From contig CAKQHZ010000002.1 in assembly GCA_934246625.1 (NCBI GenBank), positions 120,001-152,000 on the forward strand: a DNA stretch of 32,000 nucleotides, written 5' to 3'. Under the pieces are notes generated by a model that was not told the DNA's origin, did not search any database, and saw nothing but the letters and a program-made list of their open reading frames with translations. This DNA comes from an uncultured Alphaproteobacteria bacterium. Lineage in GTDB: Bacteria > Pseudomonadota > Alphaproteobacteria > Rs-D84 > CACZYB01. The position numbers and the translations under genes were made by a program. Of this stretch, positions 1,936-31,329 are shown piece by piece. Each line of letters opens with the position of its first letter. Position 1 is the stretch's first letter.

Positions 1936-1989
1936 ACTACTAACTTACATATTTCTTTTCTTATTTTCATTTACCTCATCAGTAAATGC
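1924..1989 (+). repeat. 66-bp copy of the immunity-stop / tpsB-start junction and signal-peptide coding region (partner at 2875-2940)
   Basis: A hand alignment of 1924-1989 against 2875-2940 gives 56 of 66 identical positions with no indels. Both copies begin ATAAATGACTAAACTACTAAC and end AGTAAATGC. Confidence 0.85.
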
Positions 1990-2886: not shown

Positions 2887-2940
2887 ACTACTAACATACA
2901 TATTTATCTTATTCTTTGCCTTTACTTCCTTAGTAAATGC
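2875..2940 (+). repeat. Partner copy of the 66-bp junction / signal-peptide repeat (see 1924-1989)
   Basis: Same hand alignment as for 1924-1989. This copy is the authentic 5' end of tpsB. Confidence 0.85.
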
Positions 2941-12394: not shown

Positions 12395-13036
12395 ATGAAT
12401 AAGTTTATAAAAGTTTTATGTATGGTTGGGTTTTTGGCTGGTTGTAATGCAGTTTATACTGGAATGTCAAAAAGTGATTTGGCAATACAAACAAAGATGA
12501 GTTCTACTATTTGGCTTAATCCTACGGTTCCAGAAAATACCTATATTTATGTGCAATCAAGAAATACATCTGATAATTTTGCATTTAATGATTTGGGTAA
12601 TGATATTAAAAAGTCTTTGATGCTTAAAGGTTATTTGATTACCAATGACCCAAGTGAAGCAAACTTTGTTTTGCAAACCAATGTGTTAAAGGCTGTGATG
12701 GTATCGGATATTGCAAATGCGGATCAAGCATCATCTTCTGCTATGTTGACAGGAGCAGGTGTTGGCTTTGCCGTTGGAACAAAAAATAATAATACAACTG
12801 CGATAGGGGCTGGACTTCTTGCTGGGCTTGCTTCTATGTATATTGATGCGAATACTCGTGATAATTATTATGCTGTGCAAACAGATATTAGAATTACAGA
12901 AAAGTCAAAGGGTGTAAATCCAAAATATTATACAACTGTTTTGACAGTTATGGCAAATCAAGTTAATTTGACCCCACAAAGTGCAAGTGCTCCTATTAAA
13001 GAAGCGATTGCAAATTCTTTGGCTGGATTATTTTAA
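12395..13036 (+). CDS. traT: TraT-like outer-membrane lipoprotein (surface exclusion / complement resistance family)
   Basis: It has the lipobox LAGC. It matches remembered plasmid TraT along its length (QTKMSSTIWLNP vs KTQMSETIWLEP; NVLKA; Gly/Ala-rich central segment; C-terminal NQVNL...AIANSL). Confidence 0.75.
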   Translation: MNKFIKVLCMVGFLAGCNAVYTGMSKSDLAIQTKMSSTIWLNPTVPENTYIYVQSRNTSDNFAFNDLGNDIKKSLMLKGYLITNDPSEANFVLQTNVLKAVMVSDIANADQASSSAMLTGAGVGFAVGTKNNNTTAIGAGLLAGLASMYIDANTRDNYYAVQTDIRITEKSKGVNPKYYTTVLTVMANQVNLTPQSASAPIKEAIANSLAGLF

Positions 13037-16466: not shown

Positions 16467-16931
16467 TTATTGGTGAACACCTCCACCAGTATTTTGGCCA
16501 CGTTCGTTTGCAGATATTTTATATGATGATTTTTCTGTGCAATATCCAAATGAATTTACGACATAACCATTTTTGCAAGTTGTTGACCAGCCAGTTTTGT
16601 TATCACAAGTTTCCATATAAGGATCTCTTTGAGAACAAGACTTGCATGCAGTTTGTCCATAACTTGGATTGTATGTTTTAGCTGGGCATGTGTCACAATA
16701 ATTTTTAGGGTAACGGTTAAATATAATAGGACGTCTATCAGAGTAAGGGCTAAATATAATAGGACGTCTATCAGAGTAAGGGCTAAATATAATAGGACGG
16801 CTATATTTAGAAATTGTTCCTGGTGGGCATGCTTTACAGCTGTAAGTTTTTTGAGTGTTTGCATAGGTTTGTTGTATAGGTATGCTTAATATTCCTATTA
16901 TCACAAATAGGGAAAAGTGTAATTTCGTCAT
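16467..16931 (-). CDS. Secreted cysteine-rich protein (paralogue 3) with an internal 11-aa tandem repeat
   Basis: I place the start at ATG 16931 (MTKLHFSLFVIIGILSIPIQQTYA, after AAAGGAAG) rather than 16967. It has the motifs CKACPPGT and CDTCPAKTYNPSYGQTACKSC. The peptide RPIIFSPYSDR is repeated. Confidence 0.7.
   Translation of the reverse strand: MTKLHFSLFVIIGILSIPIQQTYANTQKTYSCKACPPGTISKYSRPIIFSPYSDRRPIIFSPYSDRRPIIFNRYPKNYCDTCPAKTYNPSYGQTACKSCSQRDPYMETCDNKTGWSTTCKNGYVVNSFGYCTEKSSYKISANERGQNTGGGVHQ
16718..16800. repeat. 33-bp in-frame tandem repeat (2.5 copies) inside the Cys-rich gene
   Basis: TAAATATAATAGGACGTCTATCAGAGTAAGGGC occurs at 16718-16750 and again identically at 16751-16783. 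A partial third copy runs to about 16800. Confidence 0.9.
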
Positions 16932-17267
16932 TGGTCTTCCTTTCTTTTTTACATAAAAAAGCCACACTTGTCCTTGTGTGGTCGGGTAGTTAGTCGAATC
17001 TTACAATAAAATTCCTATGGCTTTTGGAAAAAAAATTTCCCTGTTCTATAACCATAGCTACCCGACTTTTTAAAGTCAGGTAGTTTGGTGGTGATTACAC
17101 CTTTTTATTGTAATGGGCGACTAAACCCTAAATATAGAGACTAATCTATATTTGTTGATAGTATATATGATAAGTTTTTATGGCGCAAGTTGAAATTTTT
17201 TGTGTGAATTTTTCGTAGGGTTTTAAGATTTGTAATTGGCAAAAAATAAAGTGTTCTAAAATTGTTC

Positions 17268-17296
17268 TTGACTTTTTATCAAAAATAGTGTATAGT
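17268..17296 (+). promoter_or_regulatory. Sigma70-type promoter at the left edge of the phage-like cluster
   Basis: TTGACT (17268-17273), a 17-nt spacer, then TATAGT (17291-17296). Confidence 0.55.
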
Positions 17297-17344
17297 AAAT
17301 TTCAACTAATGGGATAAGTGTGCCCATTTTTATATTTAATTTAG

Positions 17345-17378
17345 CCTTCATATTTTCTTATGAAGGTTTTTCTTTTTT
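17345..17378 (+). terminator. Terminator-like hairpin in the leader, abutting the ribosome-binding site of the first phage-like gene
   Basis: An 8-bp stem (CCTTCATA / TATGAAGG) with a 6-nt loop is followed by TTTTTCTTTTTT. The AGGAG site and ATG 17391 come directly after. Confidence 0.55.
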
Positions 17379-17390
17379 AGGAGTTATGTT

Positions 17391-17678
17391 ATGAACGGAG
17401 GAATTGATTTATCCTGGTGGATAAGTGTTGTTGAAATACCCGTGTTCTTAGGTTTGTTTTGGATTATCCGAAATAATATGAGTTATTTGGAAAATTCGTT
17501 GAAACAACAAGAAGAAAAATCAAAACGAGAAATTGTTTCAATGATTGAAAATATTGCGTCTTTTCGTGTTGATGTGGCAATGAACTATGCCTCTATGTCT
17601 TATTTAAAAGACGTGGAAAATCGATTGACGGCTCATCTTCTTCGTATTGAAGAAAAAATTTCATCAGGAGGGTTTTGA
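17391..17678 (+). CDS. Small phage-type membrane protein (holin-like candidate)
   Basis: The 95-aa product has one N-terminal TM helix (WWISVVEIPVFLGLFWII) and then a coiled-coil-like tail. Its stop overlaps the start of the hydrolase gene (ATGA). Confidence 0.4.
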   Translation: MNGGIDLSWWISVVEIPVFLGLFWIIRNNMSYLENSLKQQEEKSKREIVSMIENIASFRVDVAMNYASMSYLKDVENRLTAHLLRIEEKISSGGF

Positions 17679-18124
17679 TGGCTTTTATAGAAAACAGAAA
17701 TAATCAAATTCGCAAAATGAAACTTGATAATAATTTTAATAAATTAGTTTTTGCAAAAACAATTTTTAAAGTTGTTGGCGAAAATCAAAATATTGAATTG
17801 TTAAAAGCTGTTGCAAATGTTGTGATGAACAGATTTTTATATGAATATGAAATTGATGATGAAATGACTTTTGTAAAATGTATTACAAATGTAGATTTGT
17901 TTCCATGTTGGAAAAATCTTAAATCAATGGATGAAATTGATTTGCAAAATTGCTTTTTTAAAAAATGTTTTTCTTTGGCTTTAAAAATGTTGAATGGAAA
18001 AGTGGAAGATAATACTTTGTCTTCTATTAAATTTAAAAAAGTTTCTGAGTGTCCTGTATGGGCTGTGGGTTTAAAATATGTTAAGGCGATAGATGATTAT
18101 CTTTTTTACAATAATTGTGATTAA
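17675..18124 (+). CDS. SleB-like cell-wall hydrolase (candidate endolysin)
   Basis: The pattern FAKTIFKVVGENQNIELLKAVANVVMNRF resembles the Hydrolase_2/SleB N-terminal motif (LA..iygEa....g..aVa.VvlNR). Its position is coupled to the holin-like ORF. Confidence 0.45.
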   Translation: MMAFIENRNNQIRKMKLDNNFNKLVFAKTIFKVVGENQNIELLKAVANVVMNRFLYEYEIDDEMTFVKCITNVDLFPCWKNLKSMDEIDLQNCFFKKCFSLALKMLNGKVEDNTLSSIKFKKVSECPVWAVGLKYVKAIDDYLFYNNCD

Positions 18125-18145: not shown

Positions 18146-18880
18146 ATGACAGAGTTAAAAAATGATGAATTAAAAAAATCTGTGGAAAAAAAGGAAGAAA
18201 AAATTTCAAAATTAAAACCTGAAAATGTTCCTGTGAAATTTTGGAATGATGCAAATGGTGAAATTCGTGTTGATGAACTTTTGAAATCATATTTGGAATT
18301 GGAAAAAAAGTTTAGTGAAGTTTCAAAAAATAAAAATGATAAAAATATTTTGGAACTTGCTCTTGAAACAGATGTGCCTGCTGGTGAATATCAAATTGAA
18401 CTTCATCATAAACTTTTGACGATTGATGATAATGTTAATAAACGTTTGAAAGATGCAGGTTTTACAAATAAGCAAGCTCAACTTGTTTATGATTTGGGTG
18501 CTGAAATTATGATGCCTTTGATTGAGGAAATCAGCGGAGAATTTCGTATGTATCGAGAATTAGAAAAACTTGAAAAATACTTTGGTGGAGAAGAACGTTT
18601 TGATGAAATTTCACGACAAATTTCAAAGTGGGCAGAAAAAAATATTCCATCAGAAATTTATAATTCTCTTAACAAATCTTATTATGGTGTGATTGCTTTG
18701 TTTAATATGATGAATGGTGGTAATGAACCATCAATGATAAATATGGTTGGCGAAAAAGAAAATATTTTAAATGAAAAAAAATTAAAAGATATGATGAACG
18801 ATCCTCGTTATTGGAGAGATGGTGATAAAGATTTTATAAAAAAAGTTGATGATGGATTTAAAAATTTATATGACAGATAA
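18146..18880 (+). CDS. Capsid scaffolding-like protein (T7 gp9 position)
   Basis: The product is acidic and helical. Its N-terminus (PENVPVKFWNDANGEIRVDELLKSYLELEKKF) is typical of podovirus scaffold/assembly proteins. It lies upstream of the capsid gene. Confidence 0.45.
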   Translation: MTELKNDELKKSVEKKEEKISKLKPENVPVKFWNDANGEIRVDELLKSYLELEKKFSEVSKNKNDKNILELALETDVPAGEYQIELHHKLLTIDDNVNKRLKDAGFTNKQAQLVYDLGAEIMMPLIEEISGEFRMYRELEKLEKYFGGEERFDEISRQISKWAEKNIPSEIYNSLNKSYYGVIALFNMMNGGNEPSMINMVGEKENILNEKKLKDMMNDPRYWRDGDKDFIKKVDDGFKNLYDR

Positions 18881-19330: not shown

Positions 19331-19891
19331 TTGGTAAAATCAAATCCCAATAAAAAGGGTGATGAGGTAGTTCAAAAGAAAACTTCATTACTTTCTTCTT
19401 TGTTGGGATTTTTTTATACGAAAACAAAAAAAATACTTAGTGTTTATTTGTCTTTGGTTGTAATTTTTTCTTTTGCATTTGCATTTTACAAAGAACTTAA
19501 GGTTTATAGTTTAGTTCGTTTTGCAATGAACCCATTGGAAATTATGTTTATAAGTGTTGTTGGTGCAGTATTCTTGATTATTAAATTATTTATACCTGTT
19601 TTAATTGTTGTGGTTATTGCAAAATTATTTATGTTAAAGTCAAGAAAAATAAAGGTTCAACCAAAATTTAAAAAAAGTTTTAAAAGACAAACTTTGATTG
19701 CATTTGTGGTTTCATTTATTTTTGCAACTTTGTTTTATTATGATGTTGTTTTGGTTGCAAAATTTTCTCCACAACTTGTAAAATCTTCTGTTGAATTATT
19801 TGTGTTATTTTTTATATCTGTTTTATTTACTTTGTCTTCTATGTATGGTGTTATCAAAGGAGTTGCACCAGTTTTGGAAGAAAAAAAATAA
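19331..19891 (+). CDS. Polytopic membrane protein; start uncertain, possibly expressed as a -1 frameshift fusion with the upstream Lys-rich ORF
   Basis: It has four to five hydrophobic helices. The only upstream start is a TTG with no Shine-Dalgarno sequence. The first in-frame ATG would delete two helices. This frame is open back into the A10 tract at 19292-19301. Confidence 0.5.
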   Translation: MVKSNPNKKGDEVVQKKTSLLSSLLGFFYTKTKKILSVYLSLVVIFSFAFAFYKELKVYSLVRFAMNPLEIMFISVVGAVFLIIKLFIPVLIVVVIAKLFMLKSRKIKVQPKFKKSFKRQTLIAFVVSFIFATLFYYDVVLVAKFSPQLVKSSVELFVLFFISVLFTLSSMYGVIKGVAPVLEEKK

Positions 19892-20058: not shown

Positions 20059-20895
20059 ATGTCAATTTCTATTGATCAATCTTTTATAAAACAGTTTGAA
20101 GCAGAAGTTCATCTTGCTTTTCAACAAATGGGAACAAAACTTCGTTCTACTGTAAGAACAAAAAATGATGTAAAGGGAAGTTCAACAACTTTTCAAAAAG
20201 TAGGTAAGGGAACTGCAACTACAAAGGCAAGACACGGACTTGTTCCTGTGATGAATTTGGACCATACTCCTGTTGAATGTGTGCTTTCTGATTTCTATGC
20301 TGGTGATTGGATTGATGAGCTTGATGAAATCAAAACAAATGTTGATGAACGTCGTGTTGTTGCAAGTGCTGGTGCCTATGCTTTGGGTCGCAAAAGTGAT
20401 GAACTTATTATTTCAGAACTTAATCAAGCAAATGTGTCTGTTGCAATGGGTGATACTGGTTTAACAAAGGCAAAAATTCTTTCTGCTTTGGAATTACTTA
20501 ACAATAGCGATGTGCCAGATGATGGTCAAAGATTTGCAGTTGTTGGTGTGCATCAATGGAATGAACTTTTGAATATGAAAGAATTTTCTTCTGCGGAATA
20601 TGTTGGTGATACTTATCCTTTACTTAAGGGAACAGAAACAAGAAAATGGCTTGGCATAAATTGGATTATGCATAATGCTTTGCCATTTGATGAAAAAACA
20701 AAAGCAAGAAATTGCTTTATATATCACAAAAATTCTGTGGGTCATGCATCTGGTTGTGATGTGAAAACTGATATTACATGGCATGGTGAAAGGGCTGCGC
20801 ACTTTATTTCAAATTGTATGAGCCAAGGTGCAAAACTTATTGATAACACAGGTGTTGTGAAAATTATTTGTAAAGATACTTCTGTAATTGCTTAA
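20059..20895 (+). CDS. Major capsid protein (T7 gp10-like pattern)
   Basis: The pattern matches remembered T7 gp10A. The N-terminal FIKQFEAEVHLAFQQ...STTFQKVGKG resembles FLKVFGGEVLTAFAR...SAQFPVLGR. The central AGAYALGRKSDELIISEL and C-terminal YHKNSVGHA resemble MHRSAVGTV. It follows the scaffold-like gene. Confidence 0.75.
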   Translation: MSISIDQSFIKQFEAEVHLAFQQMGTKLRSTVRTKNDVKGSSTTFQKVGKGTATTKARHGLVPVMNLDHTPVECVLSDFYAGDWIDELDEIKTNVDERRVVASAGAYALGRKSDELIISELNQANVSVAMGDTGLTKAKILSALELLNNSDVPDDGQRFAVVGVHQWNELLNMKEFSSAEYVGDTYPLLKGTETRKWLGINWIMHNALPFDEKTKARNCFIYHKNSVGHASGCDVKTDITWHGERAAHFISNCMSQGAKLIDNTGVVKIICKDTSVIA

Positions 20896-21177: not shown

Positions 21178-21203
21178 AATCCCCAGTTTTGGGGATTTTT
21201 TTT
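21178..21203 (+). terminator. Strong intrinsic terminator after the capsid block (positionally analogous to T7 T-phi)
   Basis: The stem AATCCCC / GGGGATT has a 6-nt loop and is followed by a T8 run. The run ends directly at the AAGGAG of the next gene. Confidence 0.7.
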
Positions 21204-21215
21204 AAGGAGAAATTT

Positions 21216-21773
21216 ATGAATAATTTTACAATGATTGATTTGTGTTCAAAGGCTTTGCATAAAATTGGAGCAAATGAAATTGTTTCGTTTGATGAAAATA
21301 CTCCTGAAGCAGAATTAAGTAAAAGTATTTATCCTGTTTTAAAAAGGAAATTGCTTTCATCTTTTGTATGGAGTTTTGCAACAAAAGTTTTAAAACTTTC
21401 ATTGATAGAAGATGAAAATCAAACAGAGTTTCAATATTGTTTTTTGCTTCCATCTGATTTTATAAGAGCGATTAAAATATCACCAAAAGTTCCATATAAA
21501 ATTATTGAAAATAAATTGGTTGCGAATGTGTCTGATATAGTATTGACGTATGTTTCTGATGTTGATGAGGAAAATTTTTCACCTGCATTTTTAAATGCGT
21601 TTATTTATATTTTGTCCGCAGAATTATCTCTTTCTTTGTTGGACGATGTAGCAAAATTTAATTTGTTTTATCGACTTTATAATTCAGAATTAAGAGAGGC
21701 AAGATTTTTGGATAGTGCACAAGAAACGGCAAAACATTTTGATAATTTTTCTTTAATTGATGTAAGGTATTAG
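21216..21773 (+). CDS. Tail tubular protein A / adaptor (T7 gp11-like)
   Basis: I place the start at ATG 21216 after AAGGAG; the track start 21189 lies inside the terminator. The N-terminus IDLCSKALHKIGANEIVSFDENTPEAELSKSIY...FVWSFA parallels T7 gp11 [31 protein letters not shown]...GWTFN. Its size is also similar to that of gp11. Confidence 0.6.
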   Translation: MNNFTMIDLCSKALHKIGANEIVSFDENTPEAELSKSIYPVLKRKLLSSFVWSFATKVLKLSLIEDENQTEFQYCFLLPSDFIRAIKISPKVPYKIIENKLVANVSDIVLTYVSDVDEENFSPAFLNAFIYILSAELSLSLLDDVAKFNLFYRLYNSELREARFLDSAQETAKHFDNFSLIDVRY

Positions 21774-21781
21774 GTGTTGGT

Positions 21782-23686
21782 ATGTATAAACAAATTATTT
21801 CAAATACAAATTTTGCGTTTGGTGAAATTTCTCCTTATCTTTTTGGAAGGGGAGATATTGAGGCATATAAAAATGGTGCTATGACTATGTCAAATATGAC
21901 AGTTATTCCCACAGGTGGAGTTAAGCGTCGAGCAGGATTAAAGTTTTTGTGTGATTTGCCAAATGCTGGAAAATTGATAAATTTTGATTACTCTTCTTTG
22001 GAAAATTTTTTACTTTATTTCAGTGAAAATATTTTGTGGATTTATAATAGCATTGGTGAAAAGGTTGCAAGTCTTATGACTCCATTTTCCATTGCTCAAT
22101 TATCAAATATACGATGGTCGCAAAAGGGAAATCAATTATATATTGTGCATAAAGATGTTGCACCAAAAGTTTTGAAATATTATCCTCTTGAAGATAATTG
22201 GATTTTGGAAGATTGGCAATATGCGGTAAGTGATAAAAACTTTTCTTGTGAACCATTTGCAAAGTTTGAAGACACAGAAAATATTATGATTACTCCGTCT
22301 GGAAAAACTGGTGAAATTTCATTGGTTTCATCACAAAGTTTGTTTGATAATTCGTTTTTGGGTATTAAACTTCTTATTGATGGAGGTGAAGTTTGTATTA
22401 CTCAAATAATTTCTGGAACAGAGGCAAAGGCTGTTGTAAAAGCAGAATTGAGTGCTTTGGTTGCAACTTCTTCTTGGCAAGAACAGGCATTTTCGCTTAA
22501 GCGTGGTTTCCCAAAAAGTATTGCATTTCATCAAAACAGATTGGTGATTGGTGGGTCAAAAAGTTTGGCGAATAGATTGTGGTTTTCAAAAACAGGAGAA
22601 TATTTTAATTTTGATTTGGGTGAAGGTCTTGATGACGAAGCGATTGAGTTTGATTTATTGTCAGACAGAGTTAATGAAATTTTGTGTGTTTTTTCAGGAA
22701 AGCATTTACAAATTTTTACATCAGATTCTGAATGGATGGTGTCTGGGTATCCATTGACACCAACTTCATTGACGGTAAAGCAACAAACCAAAATTGGTTC
22801 TGTGGCAGATAAATTTATTTCACCAAAACTTGTTGAAGGTTCAACTATATTTGTTGCAAAAAACAACAAAGAAATTCGAGAATTTTTTTATGGAGATATT
22901 TCTGAAAATTATTCGTCCGAAGATTTAATTTTGCTTTCAAATCATTTAATGAATAAACCAAAAGAATTGGATTACGATATTAAAAACCGAATGCTTTATG
23001 TTTTGCAAAGTGATGGGACTATATCAATATTGCTTACAAATAAAACCAATGCTATAAATGCGTGGTTTAAGTATGAAACTCAAGGTGAATTTATTTCGCT
23101 TAATGTGTTTAATAATACTTTATATGTTATTGTTAAACGAGATGATAAGTATTTTTTAGAGTATTTGTCCGATGATGTGATGACAGATTCTTCTTTGACT
23201 TTTTCTTTTGATACAAAGGTTGATAAGATTGTTGGAATTTCACATTTGAACAATAAAATTGTTAGTGTTAATGCGGATAATTATGTTTTTGATGTAAAGG
23301 TTGAAAATAATGAACTTATACTTCCTTTGTCAGCAAAAAATGTTTTTTTGGGATTAAGTTATACACATACTTTGTGTCCGTTGCCAGTGTTAATAAATGG
23401 GGTTGTCCCACCAAAAATTGTGCGACTTTTTGAGTTGACTTTTCGTGTGGTTGATACTCCTTTATTACAAATTGATACTGGTGATGGAATAAGAAATATT
23501 ACTTGTATGGATTTTGATAAGGATAATATCCTTGATAATTCGTTGGTGCCATTTAATGGTGATATTCATATCAAAGCAAAAGGTTTGATTAAAAATTTTG
23601 AAGTCCCATTATGGAAGGTGCAAAGTTCAAAACCTTATAATGTAAAAATTTTAAATATTTCTGCAAAAATTGGTAGTGTAAAATAG
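21782..23686 (+). CDS. Tail tubular protein B / nozzle (T7 gp12-like)
   Basis: The N-terminus FAFGEISPYLFGRGD resembles gp12 LKGGISQQPDILRYPD. FHQNRLVIGGSKSLANRLWFSKTGEYFNFD resembles gp12 FFRNRLGFLSGENIILSRTAKYFNFY. It follows the gp11-like gene. Confidence 0.7.
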   Translation: MYKQIISNTNFAFGEISPYLFGRGDIEAYKNGAMTMSNMTVIPTGGVKRRAGLKFLCDLPNAGKLINFDYSSLENFLLYFSENILWIYNSIGEKVASLMTPFSIAQLSNIRWSQKGNQLYIVHKDVAPKVLKYYPLEDNWILEDWQYAVSDKNFSCEPFAKFEDTENIMITPSGKTGEISLVSSQSLFDNSFLGIKLLIDGGEVCITQIISGTEAKAVVKAELSALVATSSWQEQAFSLKRGFPKSIAFHQNRLVIGGSKSLANRLWFSKTGEYFNFDLGEGLDDEAIEFDLLSDRVNEILCVFSGKHLQIFTSDSEWMVSGYPLTPTSLTVKQQTKIGSVADKFISPKLVEGSTIFVAKNNKEIREFFYGDISENYSSEDLILLSNHLMNKPKELDYDIKNRMLYVLQSDGTISILLTNKTNAINAWFKYETQGEFISLNVFNNTLYVIVKRDDKYFLEYLSDDVMTDSSLTFSFDTKVDKIVGISHLNNKIVSVNADNYVFDVKVENNELILPLSAKNVFLGLSYTHTLCPLPVLINGVVPPKIVRLFELTFRVVDTPLLQIDTGDGIRNITCMDFDKDNILDNSLVPFNGDIHIKAKGLIKNFEVPLWKVQSSKPYNVKILNISAKIGSVK

Positions 23687-23707: not shown

Positions 23708-24154
23708 ATGGGAGCAAGTGCTGGTGTTGCCGCAGTTCTTACTGCTGCGGATAGTATTATTGATTATAGAGAAAAAAAGAAGCAACAAAAGGCAAATGAA
23801 AAATTATTAAATCAACAACAGGAAGTCAAGGAAGAAGAAAATGAAATAAAAAAACAAATTTTAAAAGATGAAAAGACAAATTTGCTTAAAACAAAATTGG
23901 CTTCGCAAAAGGCAAAGTTAGGTGCAAGTGGACTTGTGTCAACAACTGGGTCTTCGGCTGCTTATCTTTCAAGTTTGGAAAAGGATACAGATGAGGAAAT
24001 TTTGAAAAAAACTTCGCTTAGTGATTTGAATTTATTAAATGAAACGGCAAATTATGATTACAGAAAAAAGCTAAATTTATTAGATCAAGCAAAGAATGAT
24101 TATGATTTTTCAAAAGGCTTGGTTAATAACATTTTTTCAAAAAAATTATTTTAG
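23708..24154 (+). CDS. Coiled-coil protein with hydrophobic N-terminus (possible small internal virion protein)
   Basis: It lies between the gp12-like and gp17-like genes, where T7 encodes its internal proteins. At 148 aa it is Lys/Glu-rich. No motif was found. Confidence 0.3.
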   Translation: MGASAGVAAVLTAADSIIDYREKKKQQKANEKLLNQQQEVKEEENEIKKQILKDEKTNLLKTKLASQKAKLGASGLVSTTGSSAAYLSSLEKDTDEEILKKTSLSDLNLLNETANYDYRKKLNLLDQAKNDYDFSKGLVNNIFSKKLF

Positions 24155-24166
24155 GAGAGTTATGTT

Positions 24167-24889
24167 ATGGGTAAAAATAGTTTAGTAAAACATATATATA
24201 TTTGTGATGGTGTGCAAAAAAATTTTGACTATCAATTTGAAAGTTTTTCAAAAACAAGTATAAAAGTTTTTATTGATAACTTGATGATAAAATCTGGGTA
24301 TGAGATAGTTCCATTTTCTGACAAGGTTGGTGGAAAAATTATTTTTAATACTCCTCCTTTGAAAGGGAAAGTTTTATCGATTATTCGTGAGTTAGATTTT
24401 TCACGAAGTTGTGATTTTCAAACAGGTGGAATTTTTCGTGCTGAAGATTTGAACTATGAACTTAACTATAATATTGCTTGTCTTAATCAAGTCAATGATG
24501 TTTTAACTTTGGCAGTTAAACTTTCACCACTTGATACAAAAATAAATCCAGTATTGCCAAAGGCAAAAGCAGGCTATGCAATTGTTTGGAATGATACAGA
24601 AGATGGATTTTCAAATTTAGATGTTAATATTACAGAGCAAGTTCGTTATGTTGAAGATTGCACAAATCTTGTTGAAAATCTTTATAATGATTTAAGTGAT
24701 TTATTTGCAAGCAATTCTGATATAGGAGTATTGGGGTTTGTGAATAATTTGCTTACGATTTTAAAAGAACATCATGGTGAAGCGTTTGTTGATTTTCAAA
24801 ATCTTAATTGTGTAGCAAATGATGTTATTGATTTTGGAAATGTGTCTGATGAATCACAAATTAGTGTGAAAGATAATGGAATACTTTGA
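24167..24889 (+). CDS. Tail fibre protein with T7 gp17-type N-terminal tail-attachment domain
   Basis: HIYICDGVQKNFDYQFE...IKVFIDN...IIRELDFSRSCDFQTGGIFRAEDLNYELN parallels gp17 LTYQLDGSNRDFNIPFEY...VVVTLIG...RVTSTTDRLVDFTDGSILRAYDLNVAQ. Confidence 0.7.
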   Translation: MGKNSLVKHIYICDGVQKNFDYQFESFSKTSIKVFIDNLMIKSGYEIVPFSDKVGGKIIFNTPPLKGKVLSIIRELDFSRSCDFQTGGIFRAEDLNYELNYNIACLNQVNDVLTLAVKLSPLDTKINPVLPKAKAGYAIVWNDTEDGFSNLDVNITEQVRYVEDCTNLVENLYNDLSDLFASNSDIGVLGFVNNLLTILKEHHGEAFVDFQNLNCVANDVIDFGNVSDESQISVKDNGIL

Positions 24890-25484
24890 TAAAAAAATCA
24901 GTTTTTTGGATTTTTTGAAAGATTGGTATAAAACTCAGGGACTTTTGTTTCCAGAACATCATAAAAAAATTGCAAAATGGTTGGAGAGTGTTTATTTTTC
25001 TGATAAAAAGCGAGGGCTTTTGCTTGCTTTTCGAAGTAGTGGAAAGTCAACGGTGGTTGGGCTTTTTTGTTCGTGGCTTTTGTATATAAATCCGAATTTA
25101 AGGATTTTGGTTGTTGCAGCAGATACTATGTTGGCAAAAAAGATGGTGCGAAATATCAAATATATTGTTGAACTTCACCCATTATTGGAAAGTATTAGAC
25201 CAAAGAAAAAGCAAGAATGGGCATCTGGAAGTTTTACCGTGGAAAGAAATTTGGTGTTAAGGGACCCATCTGTGATGGCTGTGGGACTTTTATCAAATTC
25301 GACTGGAAGCAGGGCTGATGTTATTATTTGTGATGATGTGGAGGTGCCAAAAAATTGTGATACTTATCAAAAACGGTGTGATTTGAGAGAGAAATTGTTG
25401 GAGTTTAATTTTATTTTGGTGCCTAATGGTATGCAAATTTTTATTGGGACACCGCATACTTTGGATACTATTTATAAAGTTTAG
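24876..25484 (+). CDS. Large terminase, N-terminal ATPase half only
   Basis: It has Walker A (AFRSSGKST), Walker B (ADVIICDDVE) and the coupling motif (FIGTPHT). The ORF stops 8 codons after the GTP motif. It overlaps the fibre gene by 14 nt. Confidence 0.75.
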   Translation: MEYFDKKISFLDFLKDWYKTQGLLFPEHHKKIAKWLESVYFSDKKRGLLLAFRSSGKSTVVGLFCSWLLYINPNLRILVVAADTMLAKKMVRNIKYIVELHPLLESIRPKKKQEWASGSFTVERNLVLRDPSVMAVGLLSNSTGSRADVIICDDVEVPKNCDTYQKRCDLREKLLEFNFILVPNGMQIFIGTPHTLDTIYKV

Positions 25485-25545: not shown

Positions 25546-25573
25546 TTGACAAATTCGAATTAGTTTGTATAAT
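25546..25573 (+). promoter_or_regulatory. Near-consensus sigma70 promoter of sRNA candidate 1
   Basis: TTGACA (25546-25551), a 16-nt spacer, then TATAAT (25568-25573). Confidence 0.6.
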
Positions 25574-25579
25574 GAGGTT

Positions 25580-25710
25580 GTTTCGTTAATAAGAAAAAAG
25601 AATTTGCCGAGACGACCCCTCATTTCGGCAGATCTGGTGAAAGCCAGTAATAATCCCCTAAGTCATTCCCTCCTTATTTTCTCTCTCCTCGACTTGGGGG
25701 ATATTTTTTT
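25580..25710 (+). ncRNA. sRNA candidate 1: about 130 nt, three hairpins, with a terminator hairpin carrying a 26-nt CU-rich (anti-Shine-Dalgarno-like) loop
   Basis: A consensus promoter lies upstream. Hairpins are GCCGA...TCGGC and CTGG tgaaag CCAG. The third stem is TCCCCTAAGTC (25654-25664) / GACTTGGGGGA (25691-25701) around the loop ATTCCCTCCTTATTTTCTCTCTCCTC, followed by a T-run. Confidence 0.5.
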
Positions 25711-25792: not shown

Positions 25793-25825
25793 TTTCTCTC
25801 TCCTCGACTTGGGGGATATTTTTTT
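25793..25825 (+). ncRNA. Second copy of the 33-nt CU-rich / GGGGGA / T-run 3' module (3' end of sRNA candidate 2)
   Basis: TTTCTCTCTCCTCGACTTGGGGGATATTTTTTT is identical at 25678-25710 and 25793-25825. A 10-bp hairpin (AATTTTCTAC / GTAGAAAATT) precedes it. Confidence 0.4.
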
Positions 25826-26220
25826 AGTTCAGAAAAGTTAGGATTTGTGAGCTTTTGTTGTGTTTTTGAGGGAAAATAGTCAAATTTGTAAAAAATGTGT
25901 GAAAAATTAGAATTTTCTGTTGAAATTTTGGTTTTAAATTGCTAAAAAAGAATCAGTTTTTGAAAAGATTCTCGAATCGATAGTAAAATTTAAAAAAAAG
26001 AATCGATTCTTGGTGGTTTTTTAAGGTTTTATTTTATAGACAATTTGAAATTGCAAAAAGAATCTTTTAATTTTTAATATGTTGTTTTTACAGCATTCTT
26101 TTTTGTTTTTTGATGGCTAATAAGTTGCCAAAAAAAGAATCTCTTGACTTTTTTTGTCGATTGCTTTAAGAATCGTTGTATGAGGCGAGTGGAAATTTTC
26201 CATTTTGTTTCAAACATATT

Positions 26221-26554: not shown

Positions 26555-26630
26555 GGCTAGGTAGCTCAGTCGGTAGAGCAAAGGACTGAAAATCCTTGTG
26601 TCGGCAGTTCGATTCTGCCCCTCGCCACCA
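26555..26630 (+). tRNA. tRNA-Phe (anticodon GAA) with encoded CCA
   Basis: A 76-nt cloverleaf was folded by hand. It has D arm GCTC/GAGC, anticodon stem AAGGA/TCCTT with loop CTGAAAA, a 5-nt variable loop, and T arm GGCAG-TTCGATT-CTGCC. The acceptor stem has 6 of 7 pairs (U4-C69 mismatch) and ends ACCA. Confidence 0.85.
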
Positions 26631-26663
26631 TTATTGGTCCCCCGTTTGGGGGATTTTTTATTT

Positions 26664-26969
26664 GTGTCGGCAGTTCGATTGTCCTCGTGATTGAAAATCA
26701 CTCGTTCGTCCCGTAAGCCTAAAACTTCGCCAAAGGCTCGTGTTTAGGCAACTATCGACTCCTGCCCCTCGCCACCACTATTGGTCCCTCATTTGGGGGA
26801 TTTTTTATTTGTGTCGGCAGTTCGATTGTCCTCGTGATTGAAAATCACTCGTTCGTCCCGTAAGCCTAAAACTTCGCCAAAGGCTCGTGTTTAGGCAACT
26901 ATCGACTCCTGCCCCTCGCCACCATTATTGGTCCCCCGCTTGGGGGATTTTTTATTTGTGTCGGCAGTT
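26664..26969 (+). repeat. 147-bp tandem repeat (2 full copies plus a 12-nt stub) made of the tRNA-Phe 3' part interrupted in the T-loop by an 81-bp insert, plus a terminator hairpin
   Basis: GTGTCGGCAGTTCGATT recurs at 26598 (in the tRNA), 26664, 26811 and 26958. Each full unit is this 17-mer, an 81-nt insert, CTGCCCCTCGCCACCA, and CCCCCgtttGGGGG with a T-run. A degenerate older unit lies at about 26290-26470. Confidence 0.9.
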
Positions 26970-27038
26970 TATTGACTTTTAAACCTTCGTTAAATGAGTT
27001 TGATGTCATATAGTTTCTTTGCAAAGTAAGGCAAAACC

Positions 27039-27047
27039 TGTGGATAA
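27039..27047. promoter_or_regulatory. Perfect DnaA-box 9-mer upstream of ftsZ
   Basis: TGTGGATAA is the reverse complement of the consensus TTATCCACA. It lies 91 nt upstream of the ftsZ ATG. It is a single site, so a chance occurrence cannot be excluded. Confidence 0.35.
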
Positions 27048-27079
27048 AAGTTTTTTTTCTTAATTTTTGTTTTCTTTTC

Positions 27080-27108
27080 TTAACATTTGGCTTTTTTTAT
27101 GCTATAGT
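27080..27108 (+). promoter_or_regulatory. Candidate ftsZ promoter
   Basis: TTAACA (27080-27085), a 17-nt spacer, then TATAGT (27103-27108). Confidence 0.35.
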
Positions 27109-27137
27109 TTATTTGAGAAAAAATTAAGGAGAGAGAT

Positions 27138-28820
27138 ATGATAGGAGAAGGAAACTTCGGCTATAATTCACAAAATGATGATGAAATTCAAAATTTTATT
27201 CCACGAATCACTGTAATGGGTGTTGGTGGTGCTGGTTGTAATGCTGTTGGCAATATGATTTCTCAAGGTATTGATGGTGTGGATTTTGTTGTGGCAAATA
27301 CTGATGCTCAATCTTTGATGTTGTCAAAGGCTCCTCGTAAAATTCAACTTGGAAAACAAACTACTCGTGGATTTGGTGCTGGCTCAAAACCAGAAGTTGG
27401 TAAAACTGCGGCTGAAGAATCTTTGAATGAAATTGCAGATGTCGTTAAAAATGCAAATATTCTTTTCTTGACTGGTGGTATGGGTGGTGGAACTGGAAGT
27501 GGTGCTATACCTGTGATTGCATCTGTGGCAAAGGAAAAGGGAATTTTGACTATTGCAATTATTACAACTCCTTTTGATTTTGAAGGTGAAAAGAAAAAAC
27601 GTATTGCAGAGGAGGCAATAGCTGAATTACTTCCTAATGTGGATTGTGTTATTACTTTGCCAAATCAAAATTTGTTCAAGGTTGCGGATAAACAAATGTC
27701 ATTTATCAATGCCTTTAAACTTTCTGATAATGTCCTTTATGAAGGTGTTAGAAATATTACAGATTTGATTATGAAACCTGGTTTGATTAACCTTGATTTC
27801 GCAGATATAAGAACTGTGATGGAAGGTCAGGGAAAAACCATTATTGGAACAAGTGTTCAAAGTGGTGAAGATAGGGCATTGAAAGCAGTGAAGGGTGCTT
27901 TGCTTAATCCTCTTCTTTCTAATGAAAGTATTAGTGGGGCAAAGGGTATTTTGGTAAATATTACTGGTAATGCTGATAATCTTTCTTTGGAAGAAGTTAA
28001 TGATATTATGAATACAATTCGTGCCGATATAAATTCAAATGATGTTAATTTCGGCTTTGGAACTTGCTTTGACCCATCTATGGGTGATAGCTTGAAAGTT
28101 GCTATTATTGCAACTGGTATTAACGGTGATAATGTTAAAACAGATGTAAATACAACAAAAACAGAAGTTAATAATACTTCTTATAATTCATTTAATAATG
28201 TTGCAACTTCTAAACCTTACTCATTTACAAATATTGAAGAAAAAAAAGAAGAAGTTCGTGTTGAGCCAAAACCAATGGAAAAGCCTATGCCTAGTTTTAT
28301 GGAAGAAACAGTTGTAAGTGATAATAAACTTGATAATTTCTTTAAAACCGGTGATGAAAAGGATATTCAAGCCTTTATTGATGAGGAAGCAGAAAAACTT
28401 AATGTCGCAAGTTCTGTTTCAAATGAACTTTTTTCTGATGAAAAAAATAGTATTTTAGATAGTAATGAAGATACTTCTTCTTTGGATAATGTATCTTTGA
28501 ATGGCAATGGTGATGATGACCATGATCCTGAACCACCAAAGGGAAAAAAGAAAAATCCTTTGTCTTCTTTCTTTGATATGATTGGTGAAAAGGATAGTGA
28601 TGATACTTTTTTTGATGATGTGGAAAAAGATGATAATGGTGATGTAAAATTTGAAAATCAATCTGAAATATCAGATAAAAAAGAAGATGATAATGTCGTT
28701 TTCTTGGCTGGAAATTTGGATACAAAGGACCCAGATGATAAGCAAATTGATTTGATGGAAATGATAAAGAAAATGGAAGAAACTTTGGAAATTCCTGCGA
28801 TATTTAAAAAAGGTTCATAA
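27138..28820 (+). CDS. ftsZ: Cell-division protein FtsZ with a long acidic C-terminal linker
   Basis: It has GVGGAGCNAV and the tubulin signature GGMGGGTGSGA. An Asp/Glu/Asn-rich linker of about 230 aa follows. The conserved C-terminal peptide is LEIPAIFKK. Confidence 0.95.
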   Translation: MIGEGNFGYNSQNDDEIQNFIPRITVMGVGGAGCNAVGNMISQGIDGVDFVVANTDAQSLMLSKAPRKIQLGKQTTRGFGAGSKPEVGKTAAEESLNEIADVVKNANILFLTGGMGGGTGSGAIPVIASVAKEKGILTIAIITTPFDFEGEKKKRIAEEAIAELLPNVDCVITLPNQNLFKVADKQMSFINAFKLSDNVLYEGVRNITDLIMKPGLINLDFADIRTVMEGQGKTIIGTSVQSGEDRALKAVKGALLNPLLSNESISGAKGILVNITGNADNLSLEEVNDIMNTIRADINSNDVNFGFGTCFDPSMGDSLKVAIIATGINGDNVKTDVNTTKTEVNNTSYNSFNNVATSKPYSFTNIEEKKEEVRVEPKPMEKPMPSFMEETVVSDNKLDNFFKTGDEKDIQAFIDEEAEKLNVASSVSNELFSDEKNSILDSNEDTSSLDNVSLNGNGDDDHDPEPPKGKKKNPLSSFFDMIGEKDSDDTFFDDVEKDDNGDVKFENQSEISDKKEDDNVVFLAGNLDTKDPDDKQIDLMEMIKKMEETLEIPAIFKKGS

Positions 28821-28840
28821 AAATAATTTTTTAAACTTTG

Positions 28841-28875
28841 TCCCCCTTTGATTTTTTTCAAAGGGGGATTTTTTT
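28841..28875 (+). terminator. Strong intrinsic terminator after ftsZ, 9 nt before the portal-gene Shine-Dalgarno sequence
   Basis: A perfect 11-bp stem (TCCCCCTTTGA 28841-28851 / TCAAAGGGGGA 28858-28868) has a 6-nt loop and a T7 run. AAGGAG lies at 28885-28890. Confidence 0.8.
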
Positions 28876-28895
28876 AACTTAAATAAGGAGTTAAT

Positions 28896-30392
28896 ATGAT
28901 TGAAAAGGAAATTTTTGATAAAAATTTTGTTGATGATGTCTATAACAGATATTTGAATGCAATAGAGAAAAGGTCAGTGTGGGAAAGTTATTGGGAAGAA
29001 TGTTATGAATATGCTTTGCCACAAAAAAGTGGAACTTTTAATGGTGAAAATTTTTCTAATGTAAAGAAAAATACAAATGTTTTTGATTCCACTGCGGAAT
29101 CTGCAGTTGACAGACTTGCAAGTAGTCTTCTTTCCCAACTTACTCCACCATGGTCAAAATGGTTTGGGTTGGAATTTGGTATTGATATAGCTGATGATGA
29201 TAAAAAGGAAAAGTATCTTCAACTTGAAAATATTGAAAAGATTTTGCAATCTCATTTGGATAGGTCAAATTTTTATGTGGAAGCTCATCAATGCTATTTG
29301 GATTTAATTACGGTTGGAACTGCGGTTATGTTATTTGAAGAAAATGCAGTAGGTGAAAATTCCGCATTTAAGTTTACTTCTGTGCCAATGAATGAAGTTG
29401 CGTTTGAAGAAAATACGAATGGAAAGTTGGATACTGTATTTCGTCGTTCTTATGTCTCACTTGCAAATTTAAAAATAAGGTTTGCCAATGTTATTTTTGA
29501 TGAAAAACAACAGGAAATTATTTCCAAAAACCTTGATAAAAAAGTGTATGTGATAGAGGCTGTGTTGCCACGAATAACTTCTTCTGGACAACAGGGATAT
29601 AATTATATTGCGTTTATTGATGATGTAGAAAATATTTTTAATAGCTCTGTTAAAATAATTCTTAAAACAGGAGTATTTGCAAATTCTCCGTTTATTTGTT
29701 TCAGATGGCAAAAGGTTAGTTCTGAAATTTATGGAAGGTCTCCTGTGATGAAGGCTTTGCCAGATATTAAAACCGCAAATAAAGTTGTGGAACTTATTCT
29801 TAAAAATGCGTCTATTGCAGTAAGTGGTATTTGGCAAGCAGATGATGATGGCGTTTTGAATCCGCAAAATATAACTCTTGCTCCAGGAACAATTATTCCA
29901 AAGGCAGTTGGTTCTAGTGGGCTTACTCCACTTAGAAGTGGTGCCGATTTTGATGTTTCTCAGTTGGTATTGTCTGATTTGCGTGCAAAGATAAATCATT
30001 GTTTACTTGTGGATCAATTAGATGTGTCAAATAATTTTAAAATGACTGCAACAGAAGTGATGGAAAGAATAAATCAAATATCTCGTGTGTTGGGGGCAAC
30101 CTATGGCAGACTTCAATCTGAATTTTTGACACCTGTGGTTATTCGTGCAATTTCTATTTTAAAAAGACGTGGTGAAATTTCAGATATACTTGTTAATGGA
30201 TATGAAGTTGATTTGAAATATCAATCTCCACTTGCTCAAAATCAAATTGTTCGTGATGCAGAAAATATTTTGAATTGGATAAAAACTTTGTCAGAAGTGT
30301 GTGGTGATGCAACAAGTGTTATTGATAAAAAAGCGGTTGCGTTATATTTGGGAAAAGTTTTTGGTATTTCAGAACGATTGATTTGTGCATAG
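28896..30392 (+). CDS. Portal / head-to-tail connector protein (T7 gp8-like)
   Basis: VDDVYNRYLNAIEKRSVWESYWEECYEYALP parallels gp8 AKSVYERLKNDRAPYETRAQNCAQYTIP. YGRSPVMKALPDIKTANKV parallels YGRSYIEEYLGDLRSLENL. MTATEVMERINQISRVLGATYGRLQSEFLTPVV parallels VTAEEIRYVASELEDTLGGVYSILSQELQLPLV. Confidence 0.8.
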   Translation: MIEKEIFDKNFVDDVYNRYLNAIEKRSVWESYWEECYEYALPQKSGTFNGENFSNVKKNTNVFDSTAESAVDRLASSLLSQLTPPWSKWFGLEFGIDIADDDKKEKYLQLENIEKILQSHLDRSNFYVEAHQCYLDLITVGTAVMLFEENAVGENSAFKFTSVPMNEVAFEENTNGKLDTVFRRSYVSLANLKIRFANVIFDEKQQEIISKNLDKKVYVIEAVLPRITSSGQQGYNYIAFIDDVENIFNSSVKIILKTGVFANSPFICFRWQKVSSEIYGRSPVMKALPDIKTANKVVELILKNASIAVSGIWQADDDGVLNPQNITLAPGTIIPKAVGSSGLTPLRSGADFDVSQLVLSDLRAKINHCLLVDQLDVSNNFKMTATEVMERINQISRVLGATYGRLQSEFLTPVVIRAISILKRRGEISDILVNGYEVDLKYQSPLAQNQIVRDAENILNWIKTLSEVCGDATSVIDKKAVALYLGKVFGISERLICA

Positions 30393-30402
30393 TGAGGATA
30401 TT

Positions 30403-31281
30403 ATGGAGGAAGATTTTAGCTTGCCTTTTTTGGCTGGGTTTGATGTCCTTAAAATTCCAGTTATTGAAAATGGGATTCCTGTATGGCCTGAAAAATTCCC
30501 GATTGAAAAAATTGAGGAATTAAAGGTTCGGGTTGGAATGACAAAATTTTCTTCGCAAATGCTACTTAATCCTGTGCAATTAAATAAAGGGCGATTTGAT
30601 ATAAACAAGTTAAAATTTTATAATTCTGATTTGTGTGTAGAGGAACATAATCACCTTTTGACCTTTACAATAAATGGTAAAAAAGTTGTCAGTTGTTCGT
30701 GTTGGTGGGATCCTTCGTATGGTTCAATCGGTGGTGATGGAAGTGTTATATCTGTTGTCTTTATTGATGTGGAAGGGCATTACTATCTTCATGACATAAA
30801 ATATCTTTATCATTCGGATAAGAAAAAGGAAGAAATTCAATCGGCATTGGAACAATGTCAGCAGGTTGGTGAGTTTGTTAAGGCAAACTATATACCTTCG
30901 GTTTATGTTGAAACGAATGGTATTGGTAAATTTTTACCAGAGTTTTTAAGAAATGAGTTTTTGAAAATGGGAATTTCCGCTGGGGTTGTTGAAAAGGTTT
31001 CTAGGGTTTCAAAAAATCTTAGGATTTTAGATGCTTTTGATGTGATTACTTCGGCAGGATATTTATATGTTAATGAAAAGGTGAAAAATACCCCTTGGGT
31101 TGCGGAATTTTGTGATTGGGGTGTTGATTCAAAAGCTCATGATGATGGACTTGATAGTGTGGCTGGTGCAATTTCGTCTGTGCCAGCCAAGTTGCCTATT
31201 TCTGTGTTGGCAAAACAAAGAAAAGTAAGTTTTGCAGGGAAAACGTATAGGGTAAAGACAAATTTTGATATAGACTTTTGA
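30403..31281 (+). CDS. Large terminase, C-terminal half (ATPase lid region plus RNase-H-like nuclease domain)
   Basis: It has its own GAGGA ribosome-binding site and ATG 30403; the track start is GTG 30385. It has WPEKFPIEKIEELKVRVGMTKFSSQMLLNP and nuclease motifs WWDPSYGSIGGDGSVISVVF, VYVETNGIG and AHDDGLDSVAGA. It continues where ORF 24876-25484 stops. Confidence 0.75.
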   Translation: MEEDFSLPFLAGFDVLKIPVIENGIPVWPEKFPIEKIEELKVRVGMTKFSSQMLLNPVQLNKGRFDINKLKFYNSDLCVEEHNHLLTFTINGKKVVSCSCWWDPSYGSIGGDGSVISVVFIDVEGHYYLHDIKYLYHSDKKKEEIQSALEQCQQVGEFVKANYIPSVYVETNGIGKFLPEFLRNEFLKMGISAGVVEKVSRVSKNLRILDAFDVITSAGYLYVNEKVKNTPWVAEFCDWGVDSKAHDDGLDSVAGAISSVPAKLPISVLAKQRKVSFAGKTYRVKTNFDIDF

Positions 31282-31300: not shown

Positions 31301-31329
31301 TTGACAAATAATGTTTTTAAGTTTATATT
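31301..31329 (+). promoter_or_regulatory. Sigma70-type promoter
   Basis: TTGACA (31301-31306), a 17-nt spacer, then TATATT (31324-31329). Confidence 0.5.

Follow-up and report, generated by a model that had tools for sequence, protein, structure and literature searches.

The gene ftsZ of an uncultured alphaproteobacterium (contig CAKQHZ010000002.1 of assembly GCA_934246625.1) was found inside a cluster of T7-like phage genes, between the two halves of a split gene for the large terminase (TerL). We analysed the 32,000-nt stretch that contains it (positions 120,001–152,000 of the contig, here called the window), which belongs to a low-GC (31.5%) bacterial chromosome and also carries glmS, mltA, accB/accC and a two-partner secretion pair. 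We think it probable that this is a genuine ftsZ forming a self-contained unit within an old, domesticated T7-like cluster that resembles a gene transfer agent (GTA), and that the portal gene and the nuclease half of the terminase (TerL_C), both downstream of ftsZ, depend on read-through of the ftsZ terminator. An identical FtsZ is encoded on 19 human-gut metagenome contigs, Hadza samples included, with the same gene order on all 19. For comparison we used 12 related loci of gut Alphaproteobacteria, of which eight come from species-level metagenome-assembled genomes (MAGs; L007–L012, L014 and L021) found by scanning a genome collection with FtsZ, and four from metagenomes (L022–L025) found by a scan with the portal protein. 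In all 12, the genes for lysis, head and tail, capsid and nozzle among them, and the ATPase half of the terminase (TerL_N) are followed by a gap of varying length and then by ftsZ, a terminator, portal, TerL_C and orf213.

The dependence on read-through is supported by three observations: hairpins with varied stems at the junction of ftsZ and portal in every related locus, no space for a promoter behind them, and the strict linkage of the two genes. In the window, a hairpin of 12 pairs, 6 of them G–C, begins 20 nt past the ftsZ stop codon (28840–28869) and is followed by a T-run to 28875. The element has the sequence features of a Rho-independent terminator, and termination is predicted here. 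It ends 9 nt ahead of the portal ribosome-binding site (RBS), AAGGAG at 28885–28890, with the ATG at 28896. A preliminary description of this DNA had placed a perfect-stem terminator 9 nt before the portal Shine–Dalgarno sequence, and our hairpin scan agrees, its 12 pairs being the 11 Watson–Crick pairs counted earlier plus a closing G–T pair. Terminator-like sites are enriched throughout 24.5–31.5 kb, with 15 found against 3.5 expected. A hairpin with a T-run separates ftsZ from portal in 12 of 12 related loci and is built from at least seven different stem sequences, with stems of 9–14 pairs, folding energies of −11.5 to −20.7 kcal/mol and runs of six to eight T. The junction hairpins were folded sequence by sequence, as MAFFT left the divergent hairpins out of register, which precluded the counting of pairs across the alignment. 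The portal ATG lies 20–60 nt past the stem in all 12 loci and the ftsZ–portal spacer always measures 65–94 nt. Insertions with lineage-specific cargo accumulate in the gap between TerL_N and ftsZ, whose length ranges from 69 bp to 4.3 kb, but never in the ftsZ–portal spacer.

A scan for the sigma70 consensus gave no promoter-like site on the + strand in 28650–28896, and a comparison of the relatives' junctions revealed no conserved motif after the T-run except the RBS. The earlier statement that the ftsZ terminator leaves no room for a promoter ahead of portal and the nuclease half is true of 12 of the 12 related loci. The two genes could still be served by a promoter of their own that is invisible to such a scan, either because it uses an alternative sigma factor or because it overlaps the hairpin, and the terminator would then merely insulate two units. 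In favour of this, weak promoters are hidden in AT-rich genomes, the scan was limited to the sigma70 consensus, the distance from hairpin to ATG reaches 43–60 nt in L012 and L025, and L012 has a TTGACG-16-TACAAT site just ahead of TerL_C. We nevertheless regard a separate promoter as quite improbable. In L010, the T-run directly abuts the portal RBS and only 20 nt separate the stem from the ATG, so that a promoter 3′ of the hairpin is geometrically excluded; any −35 element would have to sit in the hairpin arms, whose sequence is not conserved; and the RBS remains the sole conserved motif 3′ of the T-run. Since there is no promoter site upstream of them and the next gene, orf213, has a strong promoter of its own (in L010, its equivalent at 14076–14103 matches the consensus at 12 of 12 positions), portal and TerL_C make up a two-gene unit without a promoter. 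The comparison of loci thus gives good support to the reading that the portal gene and the nuclease half would be transcribed only by polymerases that have passed the ftsZ terminator.

Transcription of ftsZ itself probably starts at a sigma70-like promoter, which the preliminary description had also located and which is the best site of our scan. It is conserved across the clade as a TTAAC −35 element, a 17-nt spacer and an extended −10 element resembling TGnTATAAT. The exception is L012, where the −10 element TGgTATAAT is kept and the TTAAC −35 is absent; here TerL_N and ftsZ are only 69 bp apart, and the spacer holds a small hairpin with T6 followed by the TGgTATAAT. Polymerases reaching portal could come from two sources. 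They may be terminator-resistant polymerases from a late-type promoter at 17.27 kb, the start of the first part of the cluster (part A), as in lambda PR′–tR′ or the GTA of Caulobacter (CcGTA), or the strong ftsZ promoter may supply a small constitutive leak, perhaps enough for low-copy proteins. A particle holds 12 portal subunits and about 5 TerL, and a leak of a few per cent from the ftsZ promoter could supply portal and TerL_C. The strict linkage of ftsZ and portal fits the leak model.

The first source is suggested by the layout of the cluster. The part-A promoter and a leader terminator, which lie 9.6 kb upstream in the window, are conserved in the window, L010 and L012. The leader hairpin of L010 (726–750) shows compensatory changes, CAT/ATG to CGT/ACG, and that of L012 reads GGCCTCCGC..GGGGGC and then T6. 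Further terminators flank the capsid gene. A promoter-proximal terminator, followed by holin-like and endolysin genes and then by more terminators, suggests by analogy an antitermination layout. In the lambda late operon (PR′-tR′-S-R-...), antitermination is exerted by Q. The window cluster resembles it in the promoter, the terminator within about 50–100 nt, the holin-like and endolysin genes, the virion genes and the downstream terminators; it differs in having structural genes of T7 type, and we identified neither a Q-like protein nor a Q-binding element. In CcGTA, anti-termination by GafZ lets RNA polymerase pass terminators within the cluster (PMC11150451). Two candidates for a regulator were rejected: orf186 is a multi-pass membrane protein, and the two small open reading frames (ORFs) that precede portal in intact clusters of this family (see below) have no homologue in the loci of the window's clade.

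The ftsZ gene is authentic. The protein has GGGTGSG at residue 116, the T7-loop NLDFAD (LINLDFADIR in translation), a linker of 215 residues with 26% Asp and Glu, and the C-terminus MEETLEIPAIFKKGS; the C-terminal peptide LEIPAIFKK is conserved in the clade, with the variants LEIPKIFQK in L023 and LELPAIFKR in L012. It matches the Pfam families Tubulin (PF00091, 5e-45) and FtsZ_C (PF12327, 3e-23), lies above the cut-off of the NCBIfam equivalog TIGR00065 (355.7 vs. 295.2 bits) and scores 285–302 bits against solved FtsZ structures in the PDB. We conclude, as had been proposed from the signature, the acidic linker and the C-terminal peptide, that this is an authentic ftsZ; it is probably the genuine FtsZ gene of the lineage. 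The absence of dcw neighbours is likewise borne out, no ftsQ, ftsA or mur gene being present anywhere in the window. FtsZs of the canonical alphaproteobacterial dcw cluster share the architecture of GTPase core, long linker and C-terminal peptide; in the order murB-ddl-ftsQ-ftsA-ftsZ-lpxC, seen in L182 and L184, ftsZ adjoins ftsQ and ftsA, unlike the window gene. The lineage has a fragmented dcw cluster: in L012 ddl is followed by recF, and in the closest relatives by Ddl it is followed by unrelated genes.

The terminase halves on either side of ftsZ are contiguous parts of one protein profile, spanning positions 270–458 and 458–715 of phrog_38 and 1–189 and 232–500 of NF033889, in keeping with the earlier description of ftsZ as nested between them. 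TerL_N scores 249 bits against NF033889 (cut-off 150) and aligns to residues 41–211 of the T7-type TerL structure 8dgc_E; TerL_C alone scores 122 bits, under the cut-off, and gave no match in a PDB sequence search. TerL_C most likely starts at ATG 30403, 10 nt past the portal stop and with the RBS GAGGA at 30394–98, not at GTG 30385. Alignment to intact TerLs puts the split between "...GTPHxxxxIY" and "ADEPR..EE..FL", the C-terminal half beginning MEEDFSLPFL. All catalytic motifs are kept, namely Walker A, Walker B and motif III in the ATPase half and CWWDPSY, ETNGIG and DDGLDSVAG of the nuclease. By analogy with T4 gp17, the cut would lie inside the ATPase domain, after motif III, rather than at the domain linker. 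Among 1.8 billion representative proteins, nearly all homologues of TerL_N are 450–570 residues long, that is, intact. A programmed excision that rejoins terL was rejected, as the two junctions share no direct repeats and each half has its own RBS, start and stop. As a natural split, the terminase lends itself to testing whether a packaging motor can assemble from two chains.

All genes in 17.27–31.28 kb are on the + strand (Table 1), and the components expected of a T7-like virion module are present: a PF12236 portal, tail tubular proteins A and B, the T7 fibre N-terminal domain and a T7-type TerL. Neither the window nor the relatives' flanks yielded a gene for a single-subunit phage RNA polymerase; the cluster provides just a structural module and is no T7-like phage. 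A search of the window, and of 10 kb to each side in the relatives, likewise gave no module for replication, integration or lysogeny, only a small HTH_3 protein being present. In L096, an intact cluster of the same family, a homologue of the small protein orf95 is encoded between the genes for the intact TerL and for the hydrolase. No family match was obtained for orf186 in profile searches. In L011 (5530–6571), the tail-fibre gene is absent and the internal virion protein gene runs straight into TerL_N.

Table 1. Features of the window, in order of position (coordinates refer to the 32,000-nt stretch)
Feature	Coordinates	Strand	Evidence or remark
Part-A promoter TTGACT-17-TATAGT	17268..17296	+	Promoter scan; kept in L010 (647–675) and L012 (~1925–1953)
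Leader terminator-like hairpin and T-run	17343..17376	+	Between part-A promoter and first gene
orf95, small protein with one hydrophobic segment and coiled coil	17391..17678	+	phrog_29007, 2e-20; holin-like by inference
SleB-type cell-wall hydrolase, putative endolysin	17675..18124	+	PF07486, weak here; 1e-14 in L096 homologue
T7-type scaffold protein	18146..18880	+	PF05396 on identical gene in L001; conserved in relatives
orf186, conserved multi-pass membrane protein (cargo or unassigned)	19331..19891	+	Four hydrophobic segments in alignment
Major capsid protein	20059..20895	+	phrog_3437, 1e-76
Tail tubular protein A	21189..21773	+	phrog_394, 4e-38
Tail tubular protein B (nozzle)	21782..23686	+	PF25675; phrog_376, 2.5e-112
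Internal virion protein-like gene	23708..24154	+	phrog_418
Tail fibre, T7 N-terminal domain only	24167..24889	+	PF03906, phrog_1640
TerL ATPase half (TerL_N)	24876..25484	+	Walker A, Walker B, GTPH motif; ends TIYKV*
sRNA-like unit	25546..25710	+	Perfect-consensus promoter 25546–25573, terminator 25682–25710
tRNA-Phe (GAA)	26555..26630	+	ARAGORN/Rfam
About 2.4 tandem copies of 147-nt tRNA-derived unit	26615..26969	+	Repeat analysis
DnaA-box consensus 9-mer TGTGGATAA	27039..27047	-	Chance-level, not conserved
ftsZ promoter TTAACA-17-TG-n-TATAGT (extended -10)	27080..27108	+	Best of promoter scan
ftsZ	27138..28820	+	560 aa; profile and motif matches
ftsZ intrinsic terminator (predicted)	28840..28875	+	12 pairs, 6-nt loop, T7
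Portal (head-tail connector)	28896..30392	+	PF12236, 2e-119
TerL nuclease half (TerL_C), including end of ATPase domain	30403..31281	+	Alternative GTG start 30385
Promoter of orf213 (next gene)	31301..31329	+	Independent; marks end of promoterless portal–TerL_C unit

The cluster is vertically inherited and domesticated, and neither a recent prophage nor an assembly artefact, because gene order and flanks are conserved, the ORFs are intact, the ratios of nonsynonymous to synonymous substitution rates (dN/dS) are low and the composition is host-like. Across the related loci, the FtsZ core ranges from 91% down to 65% identity with that of the window, against 77–90% for capsid and 59–84% for portal; the nearer relatives share accC on the upstream side and, on the downstream side, mipZ, truA, fmt, def and rmuC. 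Even at the deepest split, all 13 cluster genes have kept intact ORFs, and both the GC content and the GC content at third codon positions are host-like. In five genome pairs, dN/dS (NG86) ranged over the cluster genes from 0.03 to 0.6, with 0.03–0.21 for portal, 0.10–0.13 for TerL_N, 0.10–0.27 for TerL_C, 0.15–0.19 for capsid and 0.05–0.29 for ftsZ. We infer a GTA-like domesticated podovirus cluster, for which particle production and DNA transfer are at most predicted. The cluster could instead be the remnant of a decaying prophage, kept only because its deletion would remove the embedded essential ftsZ, with portal and TerL_C silent. The split TerL, the scrambled gene order, the strong terminators ahead of portal and the failure to see an integrase, replication genes or a small terminase would all agree with decay, but hitch-hiking cannot preserve ORFs: all 13 genes have stayed intact to the deepest split, portal, TerL and capsid are at or under the dN/dS values of ftsZ, and the catalytic motifs are conserved in both TerL halves. 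A dead remnant is for these reasons very unlikely.

Several observations weigh against the reading of a genuine ftsZ unit whose terminator is read through to express a GTA-like cluster. Read-through is deduced solely from the absence of promoter space; no antiterminator protein or RNA was recognised in the cluster, though one could be encoded elsewhere; and the junction hairpins look strong (stems of 9–14 bp, T6–T8), which speaks against a designed leak. We identified no small terminase, and the fibre gene is short, besides being absent in L011, because of which a working, DNA-transferring particle is at most putative. Finally, the FtsZ core of the clade (window 27138–28130) is only about 53% identical to the dcw-linked alphaproteobacterial FtsZs of L182 (9422–11137) and L184 (11122–12789), which are 79% identical to each other, while in the matching comparison Ddl drops much less, from 65% to 52%. 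The differences include GAGCNAV in place of GAGGNAV and TTPFDFEGEKK in place of TKPFHFEGHHR. The sequences suggest that either FtsZ evolved unusually fast on the branch of the clade or it is a paralogue.

In the latter case, this FtsZ would be an accessory one, captured and kept by the phage-derived element for a cytoskeletal or division-blocking role during particle production, and the housekeeping ftsZ would be elsewhere. Besides the divergence of the core relative to Ddl, this would account for PDB bit scores about 12–15% below those of canonical alphaproteobacterial FtsZ, for a C-terminal peptide LEIPAIFKK in place of (D/E)IPAFLRRQ, and for the presence of ftsZ inside the cluster since the origin of the clade. 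Accessory paralogues of FtsZ, rhizobial FtsZ2 and FtsZm among them, are not known to have the long linker or the C-terminal peptide. The window protein retains both, together with GGGTGSG and NLDFAD, and passes the ftsZ equivalog cut-off; its gene has a conserved promoter of housekeeping type, is insulated from the cluster by terminators and has dN/dS values down to 0.05. The dcw cluster is fragmented anyway, ddl lacking a downstream ftsQ-ftsA-ftsZ in L012 and in the closest Ddl relatives, and a single ftsZ locus was found per MAG in a scan using patterns derived from the window FtsZ itself. We consider an accessory FtsZ unlikely and retain the genuine gene as the preferred reading.

The cluster has intact counterparts. 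Homologues whose portal shows 45–55% identity occur commonly on large chromosomal contigs and among 12–18 kb IMG/VR records, and their hosts include Magnetospirillum gryphiswaldense (L190, CP027527.1, 2968435–2989943) and Paramagnetospirillum magneticum. The intact order is (CI/LexA-like repressor), two small ORFs, portal, Bbp19, scaffold, major capsid protein, tail tubular protein A, nozzle, internal virion protein, fibre, intact TerL, orf95 homologue and hydrolase; these clusters are set among housekeeping genes, with no ftsZ nearby. We noted L190, L096, L030, L105 and about 150 other loci as compact (~10–13 kb), structural-only T7-like clusters of Rhodospirillales and other environmental bacteria, often adjoining a CI/LexA-type S24 repressor and often with host or cargo genes inserted between scaffold and capsid. 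In M. gryphiswaldense MSR-1, the cluster stops after the scaffold gene. The Rhodospirillales clusters are thus homologous to that of the window (45–55% identity in portal, 55–69% in capsid) and, like it, are structural-only and have cargo inserted between modules, but they differ in their canonical order, intact TerL, neighbouring CI/LexA-type repressor and lack of ftsZ. The nearest cultured phages, Pelagibacter podophages, reach only about 35% portal identity. A scan of IMG/VR with a single portal protein gave no close relatives, and an alignment-based scan was needed.

A one-step rearrangement, by tandem duplication with deletions or by one block swap, was rejected, as it fails to give the observed order and at least three breakpoints are required. 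The rearrangements would have put ftsZ and portal into the large-terminase gene, after which the terminase would be made as two polypeptides. Our literature searches brought up no account of an ftsZ within a cluster of phage origin, of a T7-type terminase in two pieces or of the intact family of clusters in Rhodospirillales. We advance only tentatively the wider proposal that the locus is a rearranged member of an undescribed, vertically inherited GTA family of podovirus (T7-like) type in Rhodospirillales-like Alphaproteobacteria, with intact members in Magnetospirillum and many marine and soil genomes. The particle of the gut clade would then have a two-piece terminase, with portal and the nuclease half wired to the essential ftsZ unit, and the host would gate or feed its assembly by terminator read-through.

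Like RcGTA and CcGTA, the window cluster is a chromosomal, vertically inherited set of phage structural and packaging genes under purifying selection, with no replication or integration genes nearby, with lysis genes attached and with intrinsic terminators inside a one-directional cluster. It is unlike them in its T7-like podovirus ancestry (PF12236 portal, tail tubular proteins A and B, NF033889 terminase), which contrasts with an HK97-type siphovirus, in the split terminase and in the host genes (ftsZ, tRNA-Phe, sRNA-like units) inside the cluster; moreover, DNA packaging, particles and a GafYZ-like regulator are only putative here. FpGTA of the Firmicute Faecalibacterium prausnitzii is a human-gut GTA-like element of inferred podovirus-like morphology, with its genes distributed over at least two operons, and packaging of host DNA has been demonstrated for it (PMC12946183). 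The window cluster differs from it in being alphaproteobacterial and T7-related, with a split TerL and an embedded ftsZ, and in being known from its genes alone. If particles are made, they would represent a second alphaproteobacterial lineage of domesticated phage particles, of T7/podovirus ancestry and unrelated to RcGTA. The cluster occurs in human and animal gut bacteria and has relatives in the cultivable, genetically tractable Magnetospirillum. A promoterless portal/terminase unit behind the terminator of an essential gene would be a concrete case in which a host couples a domesticated virus to its own transcription, whether through read-through or through antitermination. The gene order would also be entrenched, since deleting the cluster would lose ftsZ.

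The preliminary description had further reported a perfect DnaA-box 9-mer upstream of ftsZ and had speculated that control by DnaA, CtrA and CcrM might tie the particle genes to the cell cycle. The box is present on the − strand, but its significance could not be upheld: the window contains one match where 0.64 is expected, and at least one match occurred in 48 of 100 shuffles. It was absent upstream of ftsZ in all nine relatives compared. A TTAA-N7-TTAA motif at ~26979 likewise falls within a strain-specific segment, and of the motifs ahead of ftsZ in the same nine relatives, neither GANTC nor TTAA-N7-TTAA is conserved; only the TTAAC of the −35 element is. Regulation acting on the ftsZ promoter would carry over to the flux of read-through, and the window strain does have both the perfect box and the TTAA-N7-TTAA motif. 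As the box is at chance level, both motifs are specific to the strain and no GANTC site is conserved, a tie of the particle genes to the cell cycle through such control of the ftsZ promoter is extremely unlikely, and the proposed cell-cycle control of ftsZ is not sustained.

The gap between TerL_N and ftsZ, 1.65 kb in the window, consists of independent small units and includes several kinds of element, further terminators among them. Directly after the TerL_N stop is a unit of ~130 nt resembling a small RNA (sRNA) gene, with a promoter matching the sigma70 consensus at 12 of 12 positions and a CU-rich terminator, of which a 33-nt block is duplicated at 25793–25825. L010 has the same promoter at 9005–9032 and a terminator at 9138–9152. 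The unit has no match in Rfam and may be an abundant sRNA of no known family. Between the sRNA-like units, ~220 nt (25936–26152) hold five or six "AAAAAGAATC" boxes, each with a GANTC site, together with GAATC/GATTC palindromes, and this array could consist of protein-binding or methylation sites. A tRNA-Phe gene occupies the same gap in L008, L009 and L010 and is found on the minus strand in L011, whose gap also contains two large secreted coiled-coil proteins. The 147-nt unit that follows the tRNA comprises the last 16 nt of tRNA-Phe (CTGCCCCTCGCCACCA), a terminator, the 5′ part of the variable loop and T-arm, and a structured insert of 81 nt at the place where closure of the T-loop is expected. 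Comparable tRNA-derived units are found in L007 (206–330), L008 (9771–9880) and L009 (4053–4160), and they could be integration scars or genes for tRNA-derived small RNAs. A two-piece tmRNA or other known RNA was rejected, as ARAGORN and Rfam report tRNA-Phe only and the z-score of the fold is only −2.1.

Outside the cluster, the two-partner secretion locus (20–4564) comprises a haemagglutinin-repeat protein fragment, three small ORFs and an FhaC/ShlB transporter, and a TraT-like lipoprotein gene lies at 12395–13036; these are possible host-interaction genes of a gut bacterium. Immediately 5′ of the cluster promoter, the gene for a small Cys-rich secreted protein (ORF 16467–16967, − strand) contains three tandem copies of a ~33-nt unit (AATATAATAGGACG(T/G)CTAT...) at 16700–16810. 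On the other side, ~3.8 kb downstream of ftsZ and just past the right end of the window, the opposite strand carries mipZ (L001, 15522–16337, − strand), the gene for the ATPase that positions FtsZ in Alphaproteobacteria. mipZ is 88–92% identical across the clade (L007–L011 and L014) and thus far more conserved than ftsZ. A ParA/MipZ-like gene likewise adjoins the scaffold gene of the intact cluster in M. gryphiswaldense.

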